From the IMG/VR virus record IMGVR_UViG_3300044633_001982: a stretch of DNA of 64,000 bases; one strand, 5' to 3'. The notes below the pieces were generated by a model, which saw only the letters and a program-made list of their open reading frames with translations, was not told where the DNA came from and made no database searches. The position numbers were made by a program, and so were the translations under genes. Below are positions 12,374 to 41,300 of this stretch, in pieces; positions within the stretch are counted from its first letter, which is position 1, and every line of letters begins with the position of its first letter. This DNA is from a virus. Its lineage: Duplodnaviria; Caudoviricetes.

Positions 12374-12985
12374 TTATTTTGATAAATGAGACATTAACAC
12401 TCCCCCTAATGCGGTTGCGTGTACTTGTAAATGGTTAATTGACTCCATATCAAGTTTAGTTTTACGTTTAGTAAAATCTAAACCTAATGTACCAATAAAT
12501 TTTTCATCTATTGATTTAATTGCGAACAGGTAACCTGATTTACAACCACTCTCTTCAGCAATATATTTTAAACCAAATGTTGAAACTGCCTCGTCTTTAA
12601 AATCAGGAATCTCAATAACATCATTTTCCAATAGTTGATTGATTGATTTACTAAATAAATTAACAGGGATATTGTGGAAATTTGATTGTATTGAGTTAAC
12701 ACCCGCCCCAACTGTTTCATACATCACACTAAATTTCGCCATTGACTTACCTGTTGGATAAAAATTACCTCCGTTATGAAACTGAGTAATCCAAACTCTG
12801 TCGGCTTTAAATTCATCTTTAATATGTTCAATTCTTGAGGTTATTAATTCTGAAACTTTTAAAGTCTCATGTACTAAATCTGGTTTTTTCTTACGTTTAT
12901 CTAAAAAGTTTTTAACAACTATAATTGATATCGGTCCTAAGACACCTGTGATAAACGCGACTACAATCTCTGATGATAATTCCAC
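12374..12985 (-). CDS. single-TM protein with GAF-like domain; possible T4 T-type holin
   Basis: N-terminal TM, basic KRKKK, ADRVWITQFHNGG, GAF-like C-terminus (FIGTLGLDF). Confidence 0.55.
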   Translation of the reverse strand: MELSSEIVVAFITGVLGPISIIVVKNFLDKRKKKPDLVHETLKVSELITSRIEHIKDEFKADRVWITQFHNGGNFYPTGKSMAKFSVMYETVGAGVNSIQSNFHNIPVNLFSKSINQLLENDVIEIPDFKDEAVSTFGLKYIAEESGCKSGYLFAIKSIDEKFIGTLGLDFTKRKTKLDMESINHLQVHATALGGVLMSHLSK

Positions 12986-16267: not shown

Positions 16268-17095
16268 TTAGAATACTTCTACTTCTTCCATCATTAACTG
16301 ATAGGCTCTTGCAAGTCGTGTCATTCCAATTCCACCACCAAAACGTGGGAAGAAATCGTGAGATAAAAATTCCTCTAACTCCTTTTCAACTCTTTCTTTA
16401 CCGAATAGTTCAAATAGTTTTTCAGAATATTTTCCATTTTCAATTGTGTAGAAGTTATTTCTCATTTCTTCCACATTGGAGCTTCTTTCTGCCGAACCAA
16501 TTGTTTCTTGTCCGTAAAGAATCACATCGACTTTATTGAATATTCTATTTTGATTCTCTCTCATATTCCAAAATGGATTGGTTCTGTATGGGAAATTCTG
16601 AAGAGATACTACGGGTCCTTTTTCTTCCCACATTCTTGTTTCGTGTTCATTTTCTAAAATTGAAACTCCTCCATATTCTTCACAAACATCATCATAGTTA
16701 ACCTCAATTGGTTTATCAAATCCTAAGTAGTCCAAAAGCTCTGATTCCAATTTTATCATTTCTTTCATTCCTCCTTTGGATTCAAATTCAAACATTGGGA
16801 AAATTAATTCGTGTCTGCCAGGAATTGGGTCTTTTTCTTGTCTATAAGACGTTGAGATACAGTACACACCATTCCATTCAGGATTTTTAAGAAGTTCGTA
16901 TTCTAACCACATTTGACCCGTCTGTGGTAACGGCCAAACCTCTCCTTGATAATTGAATGTTGTAATTGAATGTGGGTTTTCACATGCTGCCAAGATTGAT
17001 AATCTTGATTGGGTTGGGACTTCTTTAAATCCTTTTTCTTGAAAGAATGTTCTCATTTTTTGAACTAATTCATTGTAAGTTTTTGTGTTTTTCAT
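16268..17095 (-). CDS. class II aaRS catalytic-domain paralog (AsnRS/AspRS-like, no anticodon-binding domain)
   Basis: Motif 1 RTFFQEKGFKEVPT, motif 2 SYRQEK..PGRH...FPMFEFE, motif 3 PRFGGGIGMTRL; only 275 aa. Confidence 0.8.
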   Translation of the reverse strand: MKNTKTYNELVQKMRTFFQEKGFKEVPTQSRLSILAACENPHSITTFNYQGEVWPLPQTGQMWLEYELLKNPEWNGVYCISTSYRQEKDPIPGRHELIFPMFEFESKGGMKEMIKLESELLDYLGFDKPIEVNYDDVCEEYGGVSILENEHETRMWEEKGPVVSLQNFPYRTNPFWNMRENQNRIFNKVDVILYGQETIGSAERSSNVEEMRNNFYTIENGKYSEKLFELFGKERVEKELEEFLSHDFFPRFGGGIGMTRLARAYQLMMEEVEVF

Positions 17096-32599: not shown

Positions 32600-33370
32600 A
32601 TGGATAAAAATAAATTAATTTCATTAGCAAATAGATTAGGAAAAACTATTCTAAAAAAATATTCAGGTAAAATGTTACCTGGTGATGCGTATAATCAACT
32701 AAGAAAGGATGAACAATATAGTTTTTTATTTAGACAACCAAATGGCCACATTGTCATTATTTGTTTTTTAGTTTCAATACCTGAAAGTCAAAGAGAAACT
32801 CAATTTGATAATATAATGTCAAGTTTATTCACATTTACGTATTATACAATTGAAAGTGACGAGGTTGATGAGGAGTGTTCTGACTGTTACGGTAATGGAA
32901 CGGTCGATTGTAGTAATTGCGATGGTAATGGTAAGGTTGATTGTGATGAATGTGATGGTGATGGTGAAGATTCAGATGGTGATACTTGTGACAGATGTGA
33001 TGGTGAAGGTGATTTTCAATGTGACTATTGTGGTGGTAGTGGACAAGAGACTTGTGACAGATGTGAAGGCCAAGGATACATAAACATTGATGACACTTAT
33101 GAAATTGAACAGTATTATTGTGCATCATACGGCCCAAATACACTTGAAGTTTGTGAAATGTATGAGAAAGATGATGTTGTAACATCAGGAGATATTAATA
33201 CTATTGAGAATAGAAAAAAAACAATAGTATTATACACCGATACGAGAAATATTGTGGAAAACAGTGAGTTATATCGTAACGATATTCATTTTTATGAATA
33301 TAACAGGACTCCTGAATTTTATGGTAATGGTAACTATATTTCTGACACCCACATTAATGATAAAGATTAA
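32600..33370 (+). CDS. DnaJ-type zinc-finger repeat protein (6x CxxCxGxG), no J domain
   Basis: CSDCYGNG, CSNCDGNG, CDECDGDG, CDRCDGEG, CDYCGGSG, CDRCEGQG. Confidence 0.75.
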   Translation: MDKNKLISLANRLGKTILKKYSGKMLPGDAYNQLRKDEQYSFLFRQPNGHIVIICFLVSIPESQRETQFDNIMSSLFTFTYYTIESDEVDEECSDCYGNGTVDCSNCDGNGKVDCDECDGDGEDSDGDTCDRCDGEGDFQCDYCGGSGQETCDRCEGQGYINIDDTYEIEQYYCASYGPNTLEVCEMYEKDDVVTSGDINTIENRKKTIVLYTDTRNIVENSELYRNDIHFYEYNRTPEFYGNGNYISDTHINDKD

Positions 33371-33400: not shown

Positions 33401-33475
33401 TGGTACCCCCGTCTGGACTCGAACCAGAAATAACTGCTTAGAAGGCAGTGGGTATATCCCTTTACCTACAGGGGC
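33401..33475 (-). tRNA. tRNA-Arg(UCU), CCA encoded
   Basis: Folded by hand: acceptor GCCCCTG/CGGGGGT, D GGTA/TACC, anticodon stem ACTGC/GCAGT with loop CT-TCT-AA, T-arm TCTGG-TTCGAGT-CCAGA, 3' ACCA. Confidence 0.95.
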
Positions 33476-34125: not shown

Positions 34126-35358
34126 ATGAAATTCAACCAAGTTACAAATGCGGGTGAGAAAAAAATTACCAGAGGATATGGTATGAAAATGCACCCTATT
34201 CATAAAAGAATGAAAATGCACCATGGAATTGACATTCCAGTATCGACAGGTCATGACATTTATTCAATTGCGGATGGTATAATTATCGATAGTGAAATTA
34301 GAAGCGACGCTTGTGGAGGTACTATAAAAGTTTCTCACGGAGTTGTAAATGGTAAAAAATTATACACTAGATTTTGTCACTGTAGTAAACTTTTAAAGAA
34401 AAAAGGTGACATTGTCAAACAAGGTGATGTTATCGCAAAATCAGGTGGAGGTAAAGGTGACCCAGGACGAGGTGGGTCCACGGGTCCACATATTCATTTT
34501 GAAGTTTACGAAAATGGAAGTACTGTTGACCCAATGCCTTATTATAAAAATTCTGTAGGTGGGGAACAAACTGAGTTACCGAGTGAAGTTGATTTGGACA
34601 AATATAAAGATGAGTTAGAAAAGGATGGTGATTTAGATATGGACACAGGTGATACAAAGAAAACATCAAGACAAGTTGCTAAAGATTTAATAAAAAAATT
34701 ATTTGGAATAGATAAAAATTCGTCTATTGAAAATGAGGTTGTAAATGAAATATTTAGAGTTAGAGAAATTATAGAAGAACTAATTCCGACTTTTAAAATT
34801 GACACAGGTAGTAATAATGATAATAATGACGGTAAAACTTGCGGACCGTATGACCCTAATTCACTACCCGTTAAACCATGTACCTCAAGAGTTGCAAATG
34901 GTAACGTGATTACATATACAGGGTCAGATGTTATTGCTCAAGACACTGGTACTATCACGGGTGTCACTAAAGGAAGTTATACTCAGGCAATAAAAATTGG
35001 TAATACCGCTTATTATTGGAATGGTAGCTTAGATAAACAAATGGGTGTTAATATAAATAAGGGTGATAAATTAGGTATGACAGGGTCAGATAAAAAATTA
35101 ATTACCCAACCTTATAGTTCACAAACTCCAAATAAGACTCAAACTTCTACTCCTTCTAAAAATGATGGAAAGACAGTAAATCCTTTAGCTCAAACCTCAA
35201 GTGACTCTAGAAATCAGGCTAAAAATTACGTTAAAAATATTATTAACACATTAACAGGTACCCAAACACAAGCTCCAACTACAAAAAAGGAATCAATTGA
35301 AAAATTAAAACCTTTAATTGAAAACGAATTAAAAAGTTTTAAAAAATTTATAAAATGA
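34126..35358 (+). CDS. M23 family peptidase with a second degenerate domain
   Basis: HHGIDI, YTRFCHCS, GGSTGPHIHFEV. Confidence 0.85.
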   Translation: MKFNQVTNAGEKKITRGYGMKMHPIHKRMKMHHGIDIPVSTGHDIYSIADGIIIDSEIRSDACGGTIKVSHGVVNGKKLYTRFCHCSKLLKKKGDIVKQGDVIAKSGGGKGDPGRGGSTGPHIHFEVYENGSTVDPMPYYKNSVGGEQTELPSEVDLDKYKDELEKDGDLDMDTGDTKKTSRQVAKDLIKKLFGIDKNSSIENEVVNEIFRVREIIEELIPTFKIDTGSNNDNNDGKTCGPYDPNSLPVKPCTSRVANGNVITYTGSDVIAQDTGTITGVTKGSYTQAIKIGNTAYYWNGSLDKQMGVNINKGDKLGMTGSDKKLITQPYSSQTPNKTQTSTPSKNDGKTVNPLAQTSSDSRNQAKNYVKNIINTLTGTQTQAPTTKKESIEKLKPLIENELKSFKKFIK

Positions 35359-36098
35359 CAGGTAATTACAAAGTTAAAGCCCCGATAGGAGGTGTGGGAA
35401 TTAGACAAAAGGATACTTCAGATAAAGGAATTTTATTTGAGGTTACGGATGGTAATGATTATTCAGTGTACCCATGTTTACCTGGTATTGTGTCAAAAAT
35501 TGACGATGAGGAAGTAACAATTAAACATAAAGATTATGTTGGTAAAGACTTTATTTCAATATATGAGATTGACGGTAAAATTAAAGTAAAAGAAAAACAA
35601 GAAGTTACTCAGTCAACTGTAATTGGTAAAACCGATGAAGAAGTAATTTTTAAAGTTAAAGATGGTGGTTCATATACTAGCGCTAAAGATTTTATAGGTA
35701 AAGAATTTGGTAAGACAAAAGAAACTACATTATCATCAAAACAAAAAGCTAGATGTATTGCTAGAAGTATTGTTGGATTACCAGCTAAAGCCTTTGGTGT
35801 TGACGAATACGACCCATGTGCCGAGTTTTACGGAGAAAAATCTAAGGAACCATCTGAACCAGTTGATACTGAAATAAAAAAAGATGGGAAAAATAATAAT
35901 GTGGACAATAATGGGGGGAAAAAATCTAAAGATATTGACATTGACCCAAATAAATCATTACCTGACTCGACAGGTGGAGAAGAGGAAGAAGATGAACCAA
36001 GTTTACTGGGCACTGGAGTTAAAATGATTGGTGCAGTTACGGAGTCTAAAAAATTAAATGAAGAGATATTAAGGATAAAAGAATTATTAAGACTATAG
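35355..36098 (+). CDS. degenerate M23-like beta protein
   Basis: GIVSKI...IKH...SIY...KVKEKQEV..STVIGK scaffold without the metal ligands; C-terminal LNEEILRIKELL. Confidence 0.5.
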   Translation: MTGNYKVKAPIGGVGIRQKDTSDKGILFEVTDGNDYSVYPCLPGIVSKIDDEEVTIKHKDYVGKDFISIYEIDGKIKVKEKQEVTQSTVIGKTDEEVIFKVKDGGSYTSAKDFIGKEFGKTKETTLSSKQKARCIARSIVGLPAKAFGVDEYDPCAEFYGEKSKEPSEPVDTEIKKDGKNNNVDNNGGKKSKDIDIDPNKSLPDSTGGEEEEDEPSLLGTGVKMIGAVTESKKLNEEILRIKELLRL

Positions 36099-36104
36099 TT
36101 TGTT

Positions 36105-36509
36105 ATGTTTGATAAAGAACAAATAAAAAGACTTAAAGAATTATTGTCTCAAATGGGATTTAGTAATGAAGATATTAAATCAGAGATGAGATATTTAAAA
36201 AAACATTTAGAAAATTTACCTGAAGAAATTATATTATATAGAATTATAAGTGTTGATAACAAAGAAGATATTAATACTAAATTACCTGGTTCTCACTACA
36301 GTCATTCTAAAAAAGATTTAATGAGTTCTCATAATTTTACCACAGGGTATGGTGAAAAAAAATTCTTAATAACTGTAAAGGCTAAAAGAAATCAGATTGA
36401 TTTTTTTTCAACACTTGAAAATAATATATTGTATCCTAACGAACAAGAAATTACCTTAAAAAATAAAGGTAAGGGTGTTGAGATAACGTCTATAAAAGAA
36501 ATAAAATAA
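36105..36509 (+). CDS. putative ADP-ribosyltransferase-fold protein (R-S-E type)
   Basis: IILYRII, GSHYSHS, YPNEQEITL in canonical order. Confidence 0.5.
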   Translation: MFDKEQIKRLKELLSQMGFSNEDIKSEMRYLKKHLENLPEEIILYRIISVDNKEDINTKLPGSHYSHSKKDLMSSHNFTTGYGEKKFLITVKAKRNQIDFFSTLENNILYPNEQEITLKNKGKGVEITSIKEIK

Positions 36510-36530
36510 AGGGACCGAAGTCCCTTTATT
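36505..36530. terminator. bidirectional terminator at tmRNA 3' end
   Basis: AATAAAGGGAC CGAA GTCCCTTTATT. Confidence 0.85.
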
Positions 36531-36533
36531 ATT

Positions 36534-36926
36534 TGGTGGAGATGCCGGGGGTCGAACCCGGGTCCAAATAAGTAAGACATAAAACACTACACGTTTAGGT
36601 CATTGTTTTTCTAAACAATCCGAAACTTCACAATTCCCTTATTTTATAGTGGTTCGGTTTACTGAGAACTAATCCTCCACTTTGTTTCTTTTTGGGTAGA
36701 AACCACACCACAACTACGACTTCTGTTGCAAGGTTGTATGTCTGCCGACCCCTAGTAGGTTAATTTTAAATTAAGCTACAGATACTTCTTCAGTACGGAT
36801 TAAACCGATTGTAGAAAGTTTGTTGATAACGTTGCCGTTTATAATTTGAATCAGTTTAACGGAGTTAACTCAGCTCCGACGTGCGTTTTATGGCGTATCA
36901 TACCTGTCAAAGCCAAAAACATCCCC
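36534..36926 (-). ncRNA. ssrA: tmRNA
   Basis: 5' GGGGATGTTTTTGGCTTTGAC; 3' CCGGGTTCGACCCCCGGCATCTCCACCA (G-U pair in acceptor stem); tag ORF 36836-36771 GNVINKLSTIGLIRTEEVSVA*. Confidence 0.95.
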
Positions 36927-36995
36927 ATAAATCAAAGAACTATTGTGTAAAGATATAAATATATTCTTACTTATACAAGTATTTATTAAAAAAAT

Positions 36996-38078
36996 ATGAA
37001 ACTTTACGAAGCGTTAAAAAAATTTATTCAGGGTACGGCCGATGAATGGGACGTAAGGAGGAGTGATGATAACACTAGAATAGGTAGAGTGAATCAAAAT
37101 AGTTTAGGTAAATCGTTAGTTACATTAACATTTTATGAAGAGGAATTTGCAAAAATTTTCTTGGGGGACAATTCCGAATCTGATAATAACACCTATTATT
37201 TCAATGTAGCATTTAATAGAAGGGGATATTATGGAGGTTCAGTATTTGTCGACGCTCATTATTTTGGGGATGATGAGTGGAAATACGGTGCCTGTTGGTG
37301 GTATTTTAATGAAGACAACAGAAATTTATTTTTATCAATTTTAAAAATACTTAATCCGGGATTAGTTGAATTAGATGATAATGGAAAACCTGATGACGAG
37401 GCGTTTCAATTTTTACTAAGTAAATATACTGATGAAATTGAACAAATTAATTACGAATACGCTGAACTTTATGATGAGTCATTAGTTGTTGGTTTAAGGG
37501 AGTATATTTTAAAAAAAACTTGTGATGTATTTTCAGAATTTGGAATTTATGAGAAAGATTGTGCCCGTCAATACTTAACAACAGTTTCGGTATTAATGTC
37601 TTTATGGAAAATGACTAATACTGATGAAGACTCAAATGTTTTAGATTTATTACATAATTTAGCAATACAAAGAGATTTAATAATTGATGAAGATTTATAT
37701 GAAGATTATTACTCATATTTTGACGAAAAAAACTTTGACTCAGAATCATTTAATAGAACTGTAGAAAGACAATTAGAAAAAATAAAAGACAAAATTGATG
37801 AGGAAATAGATGAAGGTACATTACAAGATAGTATTAAAATACATAATCAATTATCAAAATTAGGTTATAATTTTGGTAGGTGGTATAGTTTACCTGACCA
37901 AAAACATTTTAATAAAATTGGAAAAAAGAACGAAAAATTTAAGTTACTTAACGTAATTGGGGGAAAAGTAGTATTCAATAGGTTAAATCCTGACAATGGA
38001 ATAGCACAGTCCGCAATGGGACCCGAAGATTTTTTTAATTATTTATACCATCCAGAATTGTTTGAATCAAAAAAATGA
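36996..38078 (+). CDS. hypothetical acidic protein
   Basis: 360 aa; TATTTAT upstream. Confidence 0.7.
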   Translation: MKLYEALKKFIQGTADEWDVRRSDDNTRIGRVNQNSLGKSLVTLTFYEEEFAKIFLGDNSESDNNTYYFNVAFNRRGYYGGSVFVDAHYFGDDEWKYGACWWYFNEDNRNLFLSILKILNPGLVELDDNGKPDDEAFQFLLSKYTDEIEQINYEYAELYDESLVVGLREYILKKTCDVFSEFGIYEKDCARQYLTTVSVLMSLWKMTNTDEDSNVLDLLHNLAIQRDLIIDEDLYEDYYSYFDEKNFDSESFNRTVERQLEKIKDKIDEEIDEGTLQDSIKIHNQLSKLGYNFGRWYSLPDQKHFNKIGKKNEKFKLLNVIGGKVVFNRLNPDNGIAQSAMGPEDFFNYLYHPELFESKK

Positions 38079-38092
38079 TTATCTTTGTCCTT

Positions 38093-38923
38093 ATGGATAA
38101 AAATATAGAATTTCTTAAAACAGTATTATCAATTCCAACTCACACTTATCATGAAGATAGGATGATTGATTTTTTAATTGATTATTTAAGTGAAAAAAAA
38201 TACCCTTTTAAAATTGATGAGTTGGGTAATATATACGTAACAAAAGGACTAATTTCAGAAAACGAATTTTATCCTTGTGTCGTTGCTCATACTGATACTG
38301 TACACCCTATTGACACTATCAATATTAGAGAAGAACAACGTAAAGATTCCAAAGGGAATTTAAATTTTAGTTTGAAAGCGTATAATGATGAAGGAGAACC
38401 TACAGGGATTGGGGGTGATGATAAATGTGGAGTATTTGCCTGTTTACAACTTTTAGAAGAATTTGAAGTTTTAAAAGTTGCATTTTTTGTGTCTGAGGAA
38501 GTTGGTTGTATTGGCTCAAAAGAGGCTGACCCTGTATTTTTTAATGATGTAGGGTACGCAATTCAATTTGATGCTCCTGATGATTATATGGTTACAGAAT
38601 ATTGTTTTGGTGTAAAAATGTTTGAAACTGATTCTCCGTTTCACACTACCGCTAAAACAGTATTAACTGAAAACATGTTATCAGAACCAAGATTTATGCA
38701 ACATCCTTATACAGATATTTGGCAATTAAAACAAAAATTTGATTTTTCATGTATCAATCTTTCTGTTGGTTATCACTCGTACCATACAAAACACGAATAT
38801 GTGGTTGTAGATGAAGTTTTTGCAGGTATTGAATCAGGTAAAAAATTAATTCAGGAGTTGGGAAATACAAAATATGTTTATAAACATATTCCTCGAGACT
38901 TAACAAAAGGATTTTTTAATTAA
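38093..38923 (+). CDS. M20/M28-clan zinc peptidase
   Basis: VAHTDTVH, GGDDKCG, FVSEEVGCIGS, QFD, YHSYH; start moved to 38093. Confidence 0.85.
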   Translation: MDKNIEFLKTVLSIPTHTYHEDRMIDFLIDYLSEKKYPFKIDELGNIYVTKGLISENEFYPCVVAHTDTVHPIDTINIREEQRKDSKGNLNFSLKAYNDEGEPTGIGGDDKCGVFACLQLLEEFEVLKVAFFVSEEVGCIGSKEADPVFFNDVGYAIQFDAPDDYMVTEYCFGVKMFETDSPFHTTAKTVLTENMLSEPRFMQHPYTDIWQLKQKFDFSCINLSVGYHSYHTKHEYVVVDEVFAGIESGKKLIQELGNTKYVYKHIPRDLTKGFFN

Positions 38924-38926
38924 AAT

Positions 38927-38953
38927 AAAAAAGGGGGTTTATTCCCCCTTTTT
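38927..38953. terminator. bidirectional terminator
   Basis: AAAAAAGGGGG TTTATT CCCCCTTTTT. Confidence 0.75.
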
Positions 38954-40981
38954 CTTTTTCCCTTTTTTAGTTGTTTTATTTTTTGTAAGGATAACATCTT
39001 CATCTTTAATTGAAATATTGTAGGATTCATTAATTTCAATATTATTCTTTAACACCTCATCCGACACAAAATCTTCAATTTTTTCTTGTATTGCTCTTTT
39101 TAATGGTCTTGCACCATATACCTCGTCAAATCCAACTTTAGAAATATATTCAATAACTGAATTATCAAATGTAATATCGTAACCAAGTTTAACTAACCTA
39201 TTTGTTAATTTTGATACCTCAACTAAAACAATTTTTTGAATGTCTTCGTCTTGTAATGTGTTGAATATTATAATTTCATCTAACCTATTAATAAACTCAG
39301 GGGCAAAATAGTTCTTTAACTCTTTAGTAAGAATTCCTTTTTTGGCTTCTTCATTTTTATAGACATTTTTTGATGAATCAAAACCAATTCCAGCACCAAA
39401 GTCTTGTAGTTTTTTAACTCCAATATTTGAAGTCATAATTATTAAACAATTCTTAAAATTAATCTTACGACCAAAACTATCAGTCATATATCCTTCGTCT
39501 AAAAGTTGAAGTAACGCTGAAAAAATATCTTTATGTGCTTTCTCAACTTCATCAAACAACACTACTGAATATGGTTTAGTTTTTACTTGTTCAGTTAATT
39601 GTCCTCCCTCGTCATAACCCACATATCCAGGAGGTGAACCAATCAATCGAGATACTGAGTGTTTTTCTTGGAATTCACTCATATCTACCCTTATCAGACT
39701 ATCTTCACTTCCAAATATTTGTTTTGCCAATTCTTTGGCCAATAAAGTTTTACCTACACCTGTTGACCCTAAAAATATAAATGAACCAATTGGTTTGTTT
39801 GGGTCTTTAATACCTAATCGATTTCTACGAATAGACTTTGCAATTTTGATAACCGCTTCTTTTTGACCTATTACAGACTTGTTAAGTTCTTCTTCTAAAT
39901 TAATTAAAACATTTTTATCGTCTAAACTTAATTTATTTAATGGGATTTTTGTCATGGTTGAAACCACATCATAAACTAATTCCTCAGGTACGTCTTTTCT
40001 ATTATGTAACAAATCCTCCTCAAATAACTTCTTTTCAATGTCTAAAAGATTTAAAACTTTTTTTTCTTTGTCCCTTAAACTAGCCGCTTCTTCATAATTT
40101 TGTTTTTTAACAACTAATAATTTTTGTTGTTTAATTTCCATCGCCTCTTTTTTTAATTCCTCAATAATCTCAGGGTTTTTAATATCAACTTGAGCTCTTG
40201 CTCCGACCTCGTCTAAAATGTCAAAAGCTTTATCTGGAAATTCTCTATCCGTAATATATCTCTCCGCCAAATCAACACATATTTGTAATATATTATCTGA
40301 AAATATTACTTTGTGGTAGTTTTCATATTTGTCTTTAACGTTTTTAAGAATTTGAAAAGTCTCCTCTTTAGTTGATGGACTAACTATTACTTTTTGAAAT
40401 CTTCTATCTAACGCCCCATCCTTCTCAATTTGTTTTTTGTATTCATCCAAAGTTGTAGCACCAATACATTGTATTTCACCACGAGATAACGCAGGTTTTA
40501 ATATGTTAGATGCGTCAAGGGAACCAGAAGCGTTACCTGCCCCGACAATTGTGTGGATTTCGTCAATGAATAGTATGACATTTGGATTCGCTTGAATTTC
40601 TTCTAAAATAACTTTTAACCTCTCTTCAAATTGACCACGATACTTGGTACCCGCAACAATTGAATTAATTTCTAAAGATAAAATTCGTTTATCTAAAAGA
40701 TTTCTTGGGCAGTCACCCTCAAATATTTTCATAGCTAAACCCTCAACTATTGCGGTCTTACCACATCCAGGTTCACCTATGATTATTGGGTTATTTTTTT
40801 TTCTTCGAGATAATATTTGGGCAATTCTAATAATTTCGTTTTCTCTACCAACAACGGGGTCTAATTTACCTTCCTCCGCTAATTTAATTAAGTCTCTACT
40901 AAAATTATCTAAAACAGGAGTATTGCTATTAGTCTCCACTTTTTTCGGATTTTTCATTCCGTCTTCAACTGAGTCTGTCAT
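38939..40981 (-). CDS. clpC: ClpC-type AAA+ unfoldase lacking the N-terminal Clp-repeat domain
   Basis: NBD1 GEPGCGKT, LFIDEIH; UVR-like coiled coil (KQNYEEAASLRDKEK); NBD2 GSTGVGKT, FDEVEKAH; GIGF ClpP-docking loop; GARPL. Confidence 0.9.
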   Translation of the reverse strand: MTDSVEDGMKNPKKVETNSNTPVLDNFSRDLIKLAEEGKLDPVVGRENEIIRIAQILSRRKKNNPIIIGEPGCGKTAIVEGLAMKIFEGDCPRNLLDKRILSLEINSIVAGTKYRGQFEERLKVILEEIQANPNVILFIDEIHTIVGAGNASGSLDASNILKPALSRGEIQCIGATTLDEYKKQIEKDGALDRRFQKVIVSPSTKEETFQILKNVKDKYENYHKVIFSDNILQICVDLAERYITDREFPDKAFDILDEVGARAQVDIKNPEIIEELKKEAMEIKQQKLLVVKKQNYEEAASLRDKEKKVLNLLDIEKKLFEEDLLHNRKDVPEELVYDVVSTMTKIPLNKLSLDDKNVLINLEEELNKSVIGQKEAVIKIAKSIRRNRLGIKDPNKPIGSFIFLGSTGVGKTLLAKELAKQIFGSEDSLIRVDMSEFQEKHSVSRLIGSPPGYVGYDEGGQLTEQVKTKPYSVVLFDEVEKAHKDIFSALLQLLDEGYMTDSFGRKINFKNCLIIMTSNIGVKKLQDFGAGIGFDSSKNVYKNEEAKKGILTKELKNYFAPEFINRLDEIIIFNTLQDEDIQKIVLVEVSKLTNRLVKLGYDITFDNSVIEYISKVGFDEVYGARPLKRAIQEKIEDFVSDEVLKNNIEINESYNISIKDEDVILTKNKTTKKGKKKKGE

Positions 40982-41057: not shown

Positions 41058-41300
41058 ATGGCAATTAAAAGTGAAAAAATTGAGGGTACTAAAATAATTT
41101 GTGAGATAGAATCATCTAATCTTTCTAAGACAGATTATGATACAATAAGTAAAAAATTAATTGTGGAATTTAAAAATGGGTCGTCATACGAATACGAAAA
41201 TGTTCCCCATGAATTATATACACAGTTCAGAATGTCAGAATCTCAAGGTAGTTTTTTTAGTAAAAGTATTTCAAAAAAATTTAAGTATAAAAAATTGTAA
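41058..41300 (+). CDS. KTSC domain protein
   Basis: SSNL...YD.....L.VEFKNGS.YEY.NVP...Y.......SQGSFF...I. Confidence 0.9.
   Translation: MAIKSEKIEGTKIICEIESSNLSKTDYDTISKKLIVEFKNGSSYEYENVPHELYTQFRMSESQGSFFSKSISKKFKYKKL

Follow-up and report, generated by a model that had tools for sequence, protein, structure and literature searches.

The tmRNA gene and the phage that carries it

The stretch of DNA examined here (IMG/VR record IMGVR_UViG_3300044633_001982; its full length of 64,000 nucleotides is called the window below) encodes a single transfer-messenger RNA (tmRNA), which ARAGORN places on the minus strand at positions 36534-36926 as a one-piece, intron-less gene of 393 nucleotides. The Rfam model RF00023 matches the same segment, with identical ends and without truncation, over its whole length (model positions 1-374 of 374; 129.9 bits, E = 1.6e-50, against a gathering score of 47). 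The position, length and intactness given for this gene in an earlier note, which had been made from the letters of the window and had proposed the Rfam comparison, are confirmed by these two matches; the strand had gone unstated. The acceptor stem pairs GGGGAUG with CAUCUCC over 7 bp and includes the alanine identity pair G3:U70, and the 3′ side continues through a T-arm with a UUCGACC T-loop to ACCA, the CCA being encoded in the gene. The pseudoknots were aligned as a set by the Rfam model.

Judged by its gene content, the window is phage DNA from a T4-like member of a clade of lake jumbo phages: it encodes a T4-type portal, a Gp23 major capsid protein, an S77 prohead protease and a T4-type terminase, and has a G+C content of about 30%. 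Near-identical sequence of the tmRNA region is contained in lake-water metagenomes, and the nearest cultured relatives of the capsid protein are found in a Microcystis phage (44%) and in Flavobacterium phages (41%). With a ClpC-type protein encoded near the tmRNA as the query, 80 IMG/VR loci were found; their copies are 72-92% identical to it, and the contigs are up to 322 kb long. A tmRNA homologue was detected by nhmmer in 68 of 81 related loci, always on the strand of the ClpC gene and 2-5 kb downstream of it; the loci without a homologue appear to stop short of the site. Exactly one above-threshold tmRNA is present in each of five large relatives, and the nearest record, a 26.5-kb fragment (G001), has neither a tmRNA nor smpB.

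An alignment of 26 distinct copies of the clade tmRNA shows changes on both sides that preserve pairing at 38 of the 63 predicted pairs; these compensatory pairs are located in the T-stem, in the acceptor stem and in helix 2 (alignment columns 32-51 with 383-404), where they are many. The identity pair G3:U70 is G:U in all 26 sequences. Given the compensatory changes and the constancy of this pair, the RNA is maintained as a tmRNA, and the predicted structure is that of a complete, functional-looking gene. Rfam found no riboswitch at the tmRNA, and no promoter was established in the divergent intergenic region upstream of it, where we scanned for the sigma-70 consensus, a motif ill-suited to the presumed host type.

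The middle of the clade tmRNAs (the pseudoknot 2/3 region, columns 265-345 of alignment A3) falls into several versions that are unrelated in sequence, with up to about 30 nucleotides inserted; copies with such a variant middle were seen at L009, L027, L032, L042, L072 and other loci, in a pattern that looks as if modules had been swapped. A gene for tRNA-Arg(TCT) (33401-33475, minus strand) lies about 3 kb from the tmRNA gene and is found near it in closer relatives as well; a tRNA-Met(CAT) gene replaces it in distant relatives.

The tag peptide

ARAGORN reads the tag of the window tmRNA as GNVINKLSTIGLIRTEEVSVA*, with 21 codons running from GGC to a TAA stop; as the charged alanine precedes it, the full tail is A-GNVINKLSTIGLIRTEEVSVA, of 22 residues. 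The GGC resume codon falls opposite GCA, the codon of resumption in the Rfam consensus, and is preceded by the five bases UAAAC, which read UAAAC, UAAAU, UAGAC or CAAAC in relatives, with an invariant A at -4. The same context, U/A/A/[A,U]/[U,C] followed by GGC, was found in 102 of 102 Bacteroidota tmRNAs, and the window matches it. Since the resume context is identical to that of Bacteroidota tmRNAs, the frame of the phage tag is set by the usual rules (A-86 rule; PMC2481249). In many relatives the tag reported by ARAGORN is shorter (AKLST...), a call that we rejected as a differing guess at the resume codon, since the upstream GGC AAC codons are conserved in these relatives too. The tag sequence, the length of 21 residues and the GGC resume codon that the earlier note had proposed are therefore upheld by ARAGORN, by the Rfam alignment and by the resume context.

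Comparison of the tags across related phages, also suggested in that note, yielded 21 distinct tags from 66 clade loci, each of 21 or 22 residues, with the consensus GNVINKLSAVGLIRTEEVSVA. Residues N2, G11, R14, V20 and A21 are invariant, and G1, K6, L7, L12, I13 and E17 nearly so. All 21 distinct tags end in [S/T/V/A]-V-A, and the canonical (A)LAA ending was not found among them, which is no proof that ClpX fails to read them. The ratio of nonsynonymous to synonymous polymorphism (pN/pS), calculated from 31 distinct coding sequences, is 0.37 in frame and 0.76 and 2.17 in the shifted frames; in the same sequences the variable columns number 21 at third codon positions (of 22 codon columns), 14 at first and 10 at second positions, and the region includes two-step synonymous leucine swaps (TTA/CTT) as well as one in-frame indel of 3 nucleotides. 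This coding-type pattern of substitution, with its low in-frame pN/pS, shows that the frame is read as protein, and the tag is thus, on comparative evidence, under purifying selection as a peptide.

The distribution of the tag is narrow. Bacteroidota tags are, as the earlier note stated, short, begin with G and end in YALAA: 89 of the 102 ARAGORN calls were GENNYALAA, and the coding pattern GExNYALAA* matched in at least 120 genomes, nearly all of them Bacteroidota. The phage tag shares with GENNYALAA the first G and differs at every later position. The pattern N[VT][IL][NA]KL[SQ][AT][VIL]G, which tests solely 10 residues of the front half of the tag, gave 23 matches, none confirmed, in 185,579 bacterial species genomes. 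No match to the tag was found in GenBank phages (INPHARED, in a form from which close records may be missing) by tblastn at E values up to 10, nor to the tmRNA in the same phages by blastn.

A C-terminal alanine was seen in 0 of 86 products of window open reading frames (ORFs; at least 70 residues), the commonest last residues being K, L and F; either ends that resemble degrons are avoided, or the A+T-rich composition alone may account for this.

Ancestry of the tmRNA and an intron in its relatives

An nhmmer comparison with the 102 Bacteroidota tmRNAs aligned the phage tmRNA collinearly over nearly the whole RNA, with weak scores (at most 32.7 bits), and BLAST against 401 genomes of the Bacteroidota phylum matched only the tRNA-like 3′ end of about 32 nucleotides, at 88-97% identity, in 83 of the 401; a tmRNA was present in five of the six best-matching loci that were inspected. 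Bacteroidota ancestry of the phage tmRNA is likely on these alignments, which set it against tmRNAs of that phylum alone, but it is not proven. One of the five, from a genome of the Bacteroidota phylum (L215:118-478, minus strand), has the natural tag ANENYALVA, which is of the canonical type and ends in VA.

Nine relatives, including the closest ones, have a group I intron of 228 nucleotides, containing no ORF, between nucleotides 2 and 3 of the T-loop; the window tmRNA has none. The copy at L002 matches RF00028 over its full length (74 bits against a gathering score of 50, E = 2.7e-19), has a U at -1 paired to G in P1 and a terminal G, and its removal joins the exons to restore GGGUU|CGACC. 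Introns at T-loop position 3 of tmRNA have been reported only from the class Bacteroidia (PMC11915505), and the intron-bearing relatives may be the first phage examples of this site. The phage intron had no match in the Bacteroidota loci we fetched, which had been picked by tag and not by intron. Taken together, the intron site and the common resume context point to a Bacteroidota lineage for both the gene and the host, without proving it. The intron alleles also show phage tmRNA genes to be visited by mobile group I introns, at a site that helps to assign the host.

Signals in lake RNA libraries

Many lake RNA-type runs contained a third to half of the words of a query made of the tmRNA only, and no RNA-type run was among the matches listed for a query with the 4.6-kb region. 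Contigs from four lake RNA-type runs, belonging to four studies, were placed on positions 35900-37500, and all fell within 36534-36942: the summed contig depth reached about 100-180 on the tmRNA and 0 on both 35900-36385 and 37034-37500. One RNA-library contig stops exactly at 36534, the CCA end, where it is joined to sequencing adapter. The contigs suggest a stable RNA from the tmRNA gene. They also break at about 36681, the same point as the variant middle of the tmRNA.

Partners of the tmRNA: SmpB and ClpP

Pfam searches found no SmpB among the 83 window ORFs of at least 70 residues, and tblastn of a relative's phage SmpB against all six frames of the window gave a best E value of 0.78, in agreement with the earlier remark that no smpB is visible there; ClpP was likewise not found among the 83 ORFs. 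For this phage both searches cover the 64-kb window. Nor was smpB found in the closest complete relative (G002, 293,850 bp), in G003 or in G006. Two distant complete relatives, G004 and G005 (about 322 kb), do encode it, far from the tmRNA, so by homology the gene is patchy within one phage clade. ClpP is lacking from four of the five large relatives; the fifth, G006 (208 kb, 71% complete), encodes one at G006:C1:167371-167898 (locus L084, 184 bits). A Bacteroidota control genome returned both SmpB and ClpP. Lacking an smpB gene, the subclade to which the window belongs most likely relies on the SmpB of the host.

Neighbouring genes

The gene block around the tmRNA (Table 1) has the order p401, p249, KTSC (←), ClpC (→), M20-like and p360 (←), tmRNA (→), with arrows for the direction of transcription; it is invariant wherever the loci extend far enough. 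The ClpC gene converges on the M20-p360 pair and the tmRNA gene diverges from p360, and the genes lie in three transcription units that differ in orientation.

Table 1. Coordinates of the tmRNA, its parts and the associated features; positions are those of the window unless a locus is named.
Feature	Position	Strand	Remarks
tmRNA	36534..36926	-	ARAGORN, RF00023; homologues in 68/81 related loci
Tag reading frame	36771..36836	-	GGC resume codon 36834-36836 to TAA stop
Intrinsic-terminator-like hairpin	36505..36530	-	11-pair stem, 4-nt loop, T-rich tail; directly 3′ of tmRNA
Divergent intergenic region, presumed promoters	36927..36995	.	69 nt between tmRNA 5′ end and p360 start
p360, conserved protein	36996..38078	+	Divergent from tmRNA; adjoins it in 70 loci
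M20-like (clan MH) metallopeptidase	38075..38923	+	282 aa; phrog_4191, E 1.4e-35
ClpC-type double-AAA+ unfoldase without N-domain	38939..40981	-	680 aa; PDB ClpC match, E 1e-212
KTSC-domain protein	41058..41300	+	80 aa; PF13619, E 1.6e-16; adjoins ClpC in 79/80 ClpC-seeded loci
M23 peptidase, cell-wall hydrolase type	34126..35358		Beyond tmRNA, only in closest relatives
SmpB of G005	L082:1480-1911		143 aa, intact basic C-terminal tail; G004 copy on L083
Intron-bearing tmRNA loci	L002 (intron at 12429-12656), L003, L024, L025, L029, L030, L031, L035, L040		Group I intron in the T-loop

The unfoldase gives a single collinear alignment to residues 150-785 of the ClpC proteins of S. aureus and B. 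subtilis, whereas ClpB aligns in two pieces. Both AAA modules are present, with intact Walker A and B motifs in each, together with the M-domain region. The N-domain (Clp_N), which in ClpC binds adaptors and phospho-arginine, is missing: ahead of AAA-1 there are only about 20 residues, and ClpC is aligned from its residue 150 onwards. The ClpC proteins of candidate hosts are full-length (851-861 residues). A ClpP-docking loop, GAGIGF, lies at residues 529-534; its (I/V/L)GF core is kept in 81 of 81 clade copies, and its flanks vary. Identity is 55-58% to the ClpC of Flavobacterium and Daejeonella and 52% to that of a non-Bacteroidota genome, values which do not discriminate the origin of the phage protein.

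The M20-like metallopeptidase, present in 75 of the 80 loci found with ClpC, has Pfam matches to M20 and M42 below the cut-offs and a remote likeness to PepD, PepT and ArgE. The fast-evolving p360 (23-70% identity among relatives) is modelled by AlphaFold2 with a predicted local distance difference test (pLDDT) score of 88.4, and had no match in Pfam, NCBIfam, a PDB profile search, Foldseek, VIA-align (best Z 5.9) or the ESM Atlas (template-modelling score at most 0.26). The KTSC domain is named after the C-terminus of some lysyl-tRNA synthetases. Beyond the tmRNA the gene content changes between loci, and M23 peptidases and a 134-residue protein are found there only in the closest relatives.

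Both an N-domain-less ClpC and a zinc peptidase had been recognised close to the tmRNA in the earlier note, and both are there, in the form of the ClpC, M20-like and M23 genes of Table 1. Of the ribosome-rescue and proteolysis module that it built from them, the fixed order of ClpC, M20-like, p360 and tmRNA stands, as does the ClpP loop in every copy; the M23 peptidase was rejected as a part, being of the cell-wall hydrolase type and keeping its position only in the closest relatives. The synteny that remains is not independent evidence, because all loci belong to one phage lineage, and from gene order a functional link between the tag and ClpC is possible but unproven.

Two further genes of the window are recorded here. 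The first (16268-17095, minus strand; 275 residues) encodes the catalytic core of a class II aminoacyl-tRNA synthetase alone (PF00152, E = 1.6e-13), without an anticodon-binding domain, and has a remote likeness, far below the cut-offs in every case, to asparaginyl- and aspartyl-tRNA synthetases (AsnRS, AspRS), the elongation factor P (EF-P) lysylase EpmA and AsnA. The second (32600-33370, plus strand; 256 residues) shows CXXCXGXG zinc-finger repeats of the DnaJ type, which score below the Pfam cut-off; in many relatives a homologue is encoded downstream of the tmRNA, on a strand that varies.

How the tag may be read

We consider it probable that the window encodes a working phage tmRNA whose conserved tail is read by a partner, most likely as a degron of an AAA+ protease. 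A partner would be needed because at least 10 internal positions and the final VA are constant while synonymous sites drift. Host alanyl-tRNA synthetase (AlaRS) would charge the phage tmRNA with alanine, and host SmpB and EF-Tu would deliver it into ribosomes stalled on broken or stop-less mRNAs, which should abound once a T4-like phage breaks down the mRNAs of its host or the host's RNase defences are triggered. Translation would resume at GGC, the unfinished protein would gain the 22-residue tail, and this would most likely act as a degradation signal for an AAA+ protease, with the ribosomes recycled and the junk protein returned to amino acids. The hydrophobic xVA end could be taken by ClpXP or some other protease of the host; the other candidate reader is the phage ClpC docked on ClpP.

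Several points weigh against this account. The host itself is surmised from the resume context, the tRNA-like 3′ end and the capsid relatives, and the search for smpB and clpP in this phage is limited to the window. The assembled RNA-library contigs mix members of the clade and give neither level, strand nor exact ends, and some RNA-type libraries may hold DNA. The invariance of VA, lastly, may be partly an RNA constraint, since the codons GUA GCN UAA may pair downstream in helix 5.

As to the reader of the tail, it is quite possible, if short of probable, that the degron is an ordinary one: host ClpXP, ClpAP, Lon or FtsH would take the xVA end, the front part would bind a host adaptor or merely tune the rate, and ClpC would be a general phage chaperone or protease subunit, a neighbour unrelated to the tag. 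Leucine at -3 matters for ClpX in E. coli. Since the phage tags have S, T, V or A there instead, and the whole front of the tag differs, a changed reader is plausible; moreover, keeping ALAA would have been simpler had ClpXP been the target, and recognition by ClpX alone needs no conservation of 10 or more internal residues. Set against this, the host-type resume context and the tRNA-like 3′ end point to host machinery, and tags that end in LVA are degraded almost as fast as LAA tags in E. coli, where the half-life of LacI is about 13 min with AANDENYALVA and about 8 min with the LAA tag (PMC3511798). LVA, AAV and ASV are standard degron variants that still work, and the long tag of Mesoplasma is read along its length by the Lon of that organism (PMC9382460). 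With LVA tags degraded in this way, and with ANENYALVA occurring naturally in the Bacteroidota phylum, the proposal in the earlier note that a VA end spares products from ClpXP is unsupported.

We think it rather unlikely that the phage runs an orthogonal circuit of its own, a phage-only degron that would be read by the pore of the N-domain-less phage ClpC, docked on host ClpP, with host ClpX and adaptors bypassed; equally doubtful is the fuller version of this route, with a phage ClpP as a possible alternative and the M20-like peptidase trimming the products. ClpA without its N-domain still degrades ssrA-tagged proteins. The phage ClpC, having no domain to bind adaptors and phospho-arginine, would need another way to choose its substrates; it has kept both ATPase sites, as well as the docking loop in 81 of 81 copies, and it stands in fixed order with the M20-like gene, p360 and the tmRNA. 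The tag departs from the tag of the host phylum after the first position and was not found outside the phage clade, and the relative G006 does encode a ClpP. Yet the synteny is that of a single lineage, with the genes in different transcription units, and neither the window nor four of the five large relatives have a ClpP. The M20-like protein, for its part, remotely resembles di- and tripeptidases and deacylases rather than a protease of tagged proteins, and any signal of binding or co-variation between the tag and ClpC is inseparable from shared descent.

Rescue without destruction, in which ribosomes are recycled and the tail serves solubility, marks proteins for sequestration or has a role at the level of the RNA, seems improbable to us. 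RNAalifold does propose some pairing inside the tag region, most of whose pairs never vary, and in many bacteria rescue is what makes tmRNA essential (PMC8012679). The substitutions, however, are those of a protein-coding sequence (21 of 22 third-position columns variable, leucine swaps, an in-frame indel), and tags can shrink to 2 residues where rescue alone matters (PMC11915505), whereas 21-22 are kept here. An inert passenger, whether an accidental copy of a host ssrA or the remnant of an attachment site, is barely credible: imprecise excision often leaves ssrA fragments in phages (PMC9004378), but this is a full-length gene in a T4-like genome of lytic type, diverged from the searched bacterial tmRNAs save for about 32 nucleotides at the 3′ end, and kept across the clade alongside ClpC down to 72% identity, with compensatory changes and RNA-library cover.

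Comparison with known systems

To our knowledge, almost nothing is known of the role of phage tmRNA tags. Phage tmRNAs as such are already known: they have been described from mycobacteriophage Bxz1, cluster C1 and Bacillus phage G (PMC4131195), and from huge phages that have SmpB as well (PMC7162821), and were counted in 402 of 18,146 phage genomes (PMC9004378). The present gene resembles them as a complete gene in a large phage of lytic type, with SmpB in some relatives; it differs in the phylum of its presumed host, in the clade-wide selection on the tag as a peptide and in the linkage to an N-domain-less ClpC. As far as sequence comparison can tell, the long, selected, clade-specific tag is a well-supported variant of a known theme.

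With the one-piece tmRNAs of Bacteroidota (RF00023) the phage RNA shares size (365-400 nucleotides against 393), collinearity and the GGC codon in its UAAAY context. The Bacteroidota tag has 9 residues and an LAA end, whereas the phage tag has 21 and ends in SVA, with only the first G in common; the bodies of the two RNAs have diverged too far for BLAST, and the phage copy is encoded by a virus. Bacteroidia tmRNAs with an intron at T-loop position 3 (PMC11915505) are matched by the nine intron-bearing phage relatives, in which the copies are phage-borne, whereas the window copy is intron-less.

The tag of Mesoplasma florum (PMC9382460) is likewise long and not of the LAA type; its evolution went together with a switch of the reading protease, to Lon, and its recognition is spread along the tag. 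The cause there was the loss of ClpXP from the cell, whereas the phage tag is virus-borne and the presumed host keeps a canonical tag. The Pelagibacter/OM43 phage Melnitz is like the present one in being T4-like and aquatic, in encoding an ssrA and in lacking an integrase (PMC9004378). Its ssrA has been proposed to help maintain hijacked translation; it is, however, a permuted two-piece gene under a glutamine riboswitch (PMC9004378), as opposed to the one-piece gene described here.

What the present analysis adds is the selection on the tag at the peptide level, its absence from the searched bacterial genomes, the resume context of host type and the cover in RNA libraries, together with the patchy smpB, the intron alleles and the clade-wide ClpP-docking loop in the linked ClpC. 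The clade thus offers a clean case, in which a long, selected tag, found only in these phages, occupies a fixed position near an unfoldase that lacks its N-domain and bears a ClpP loop. Were the tag and ClpC to cooperate, they would form the first viral pair of degron and protease built on trans-translation, and would hand synthetic biology a ready orthogonal degradation tag, much as Mesoplasma has done with its tag and Lon; were host proteases to read the tag instead, it would show how far the ssrA degron can drift.

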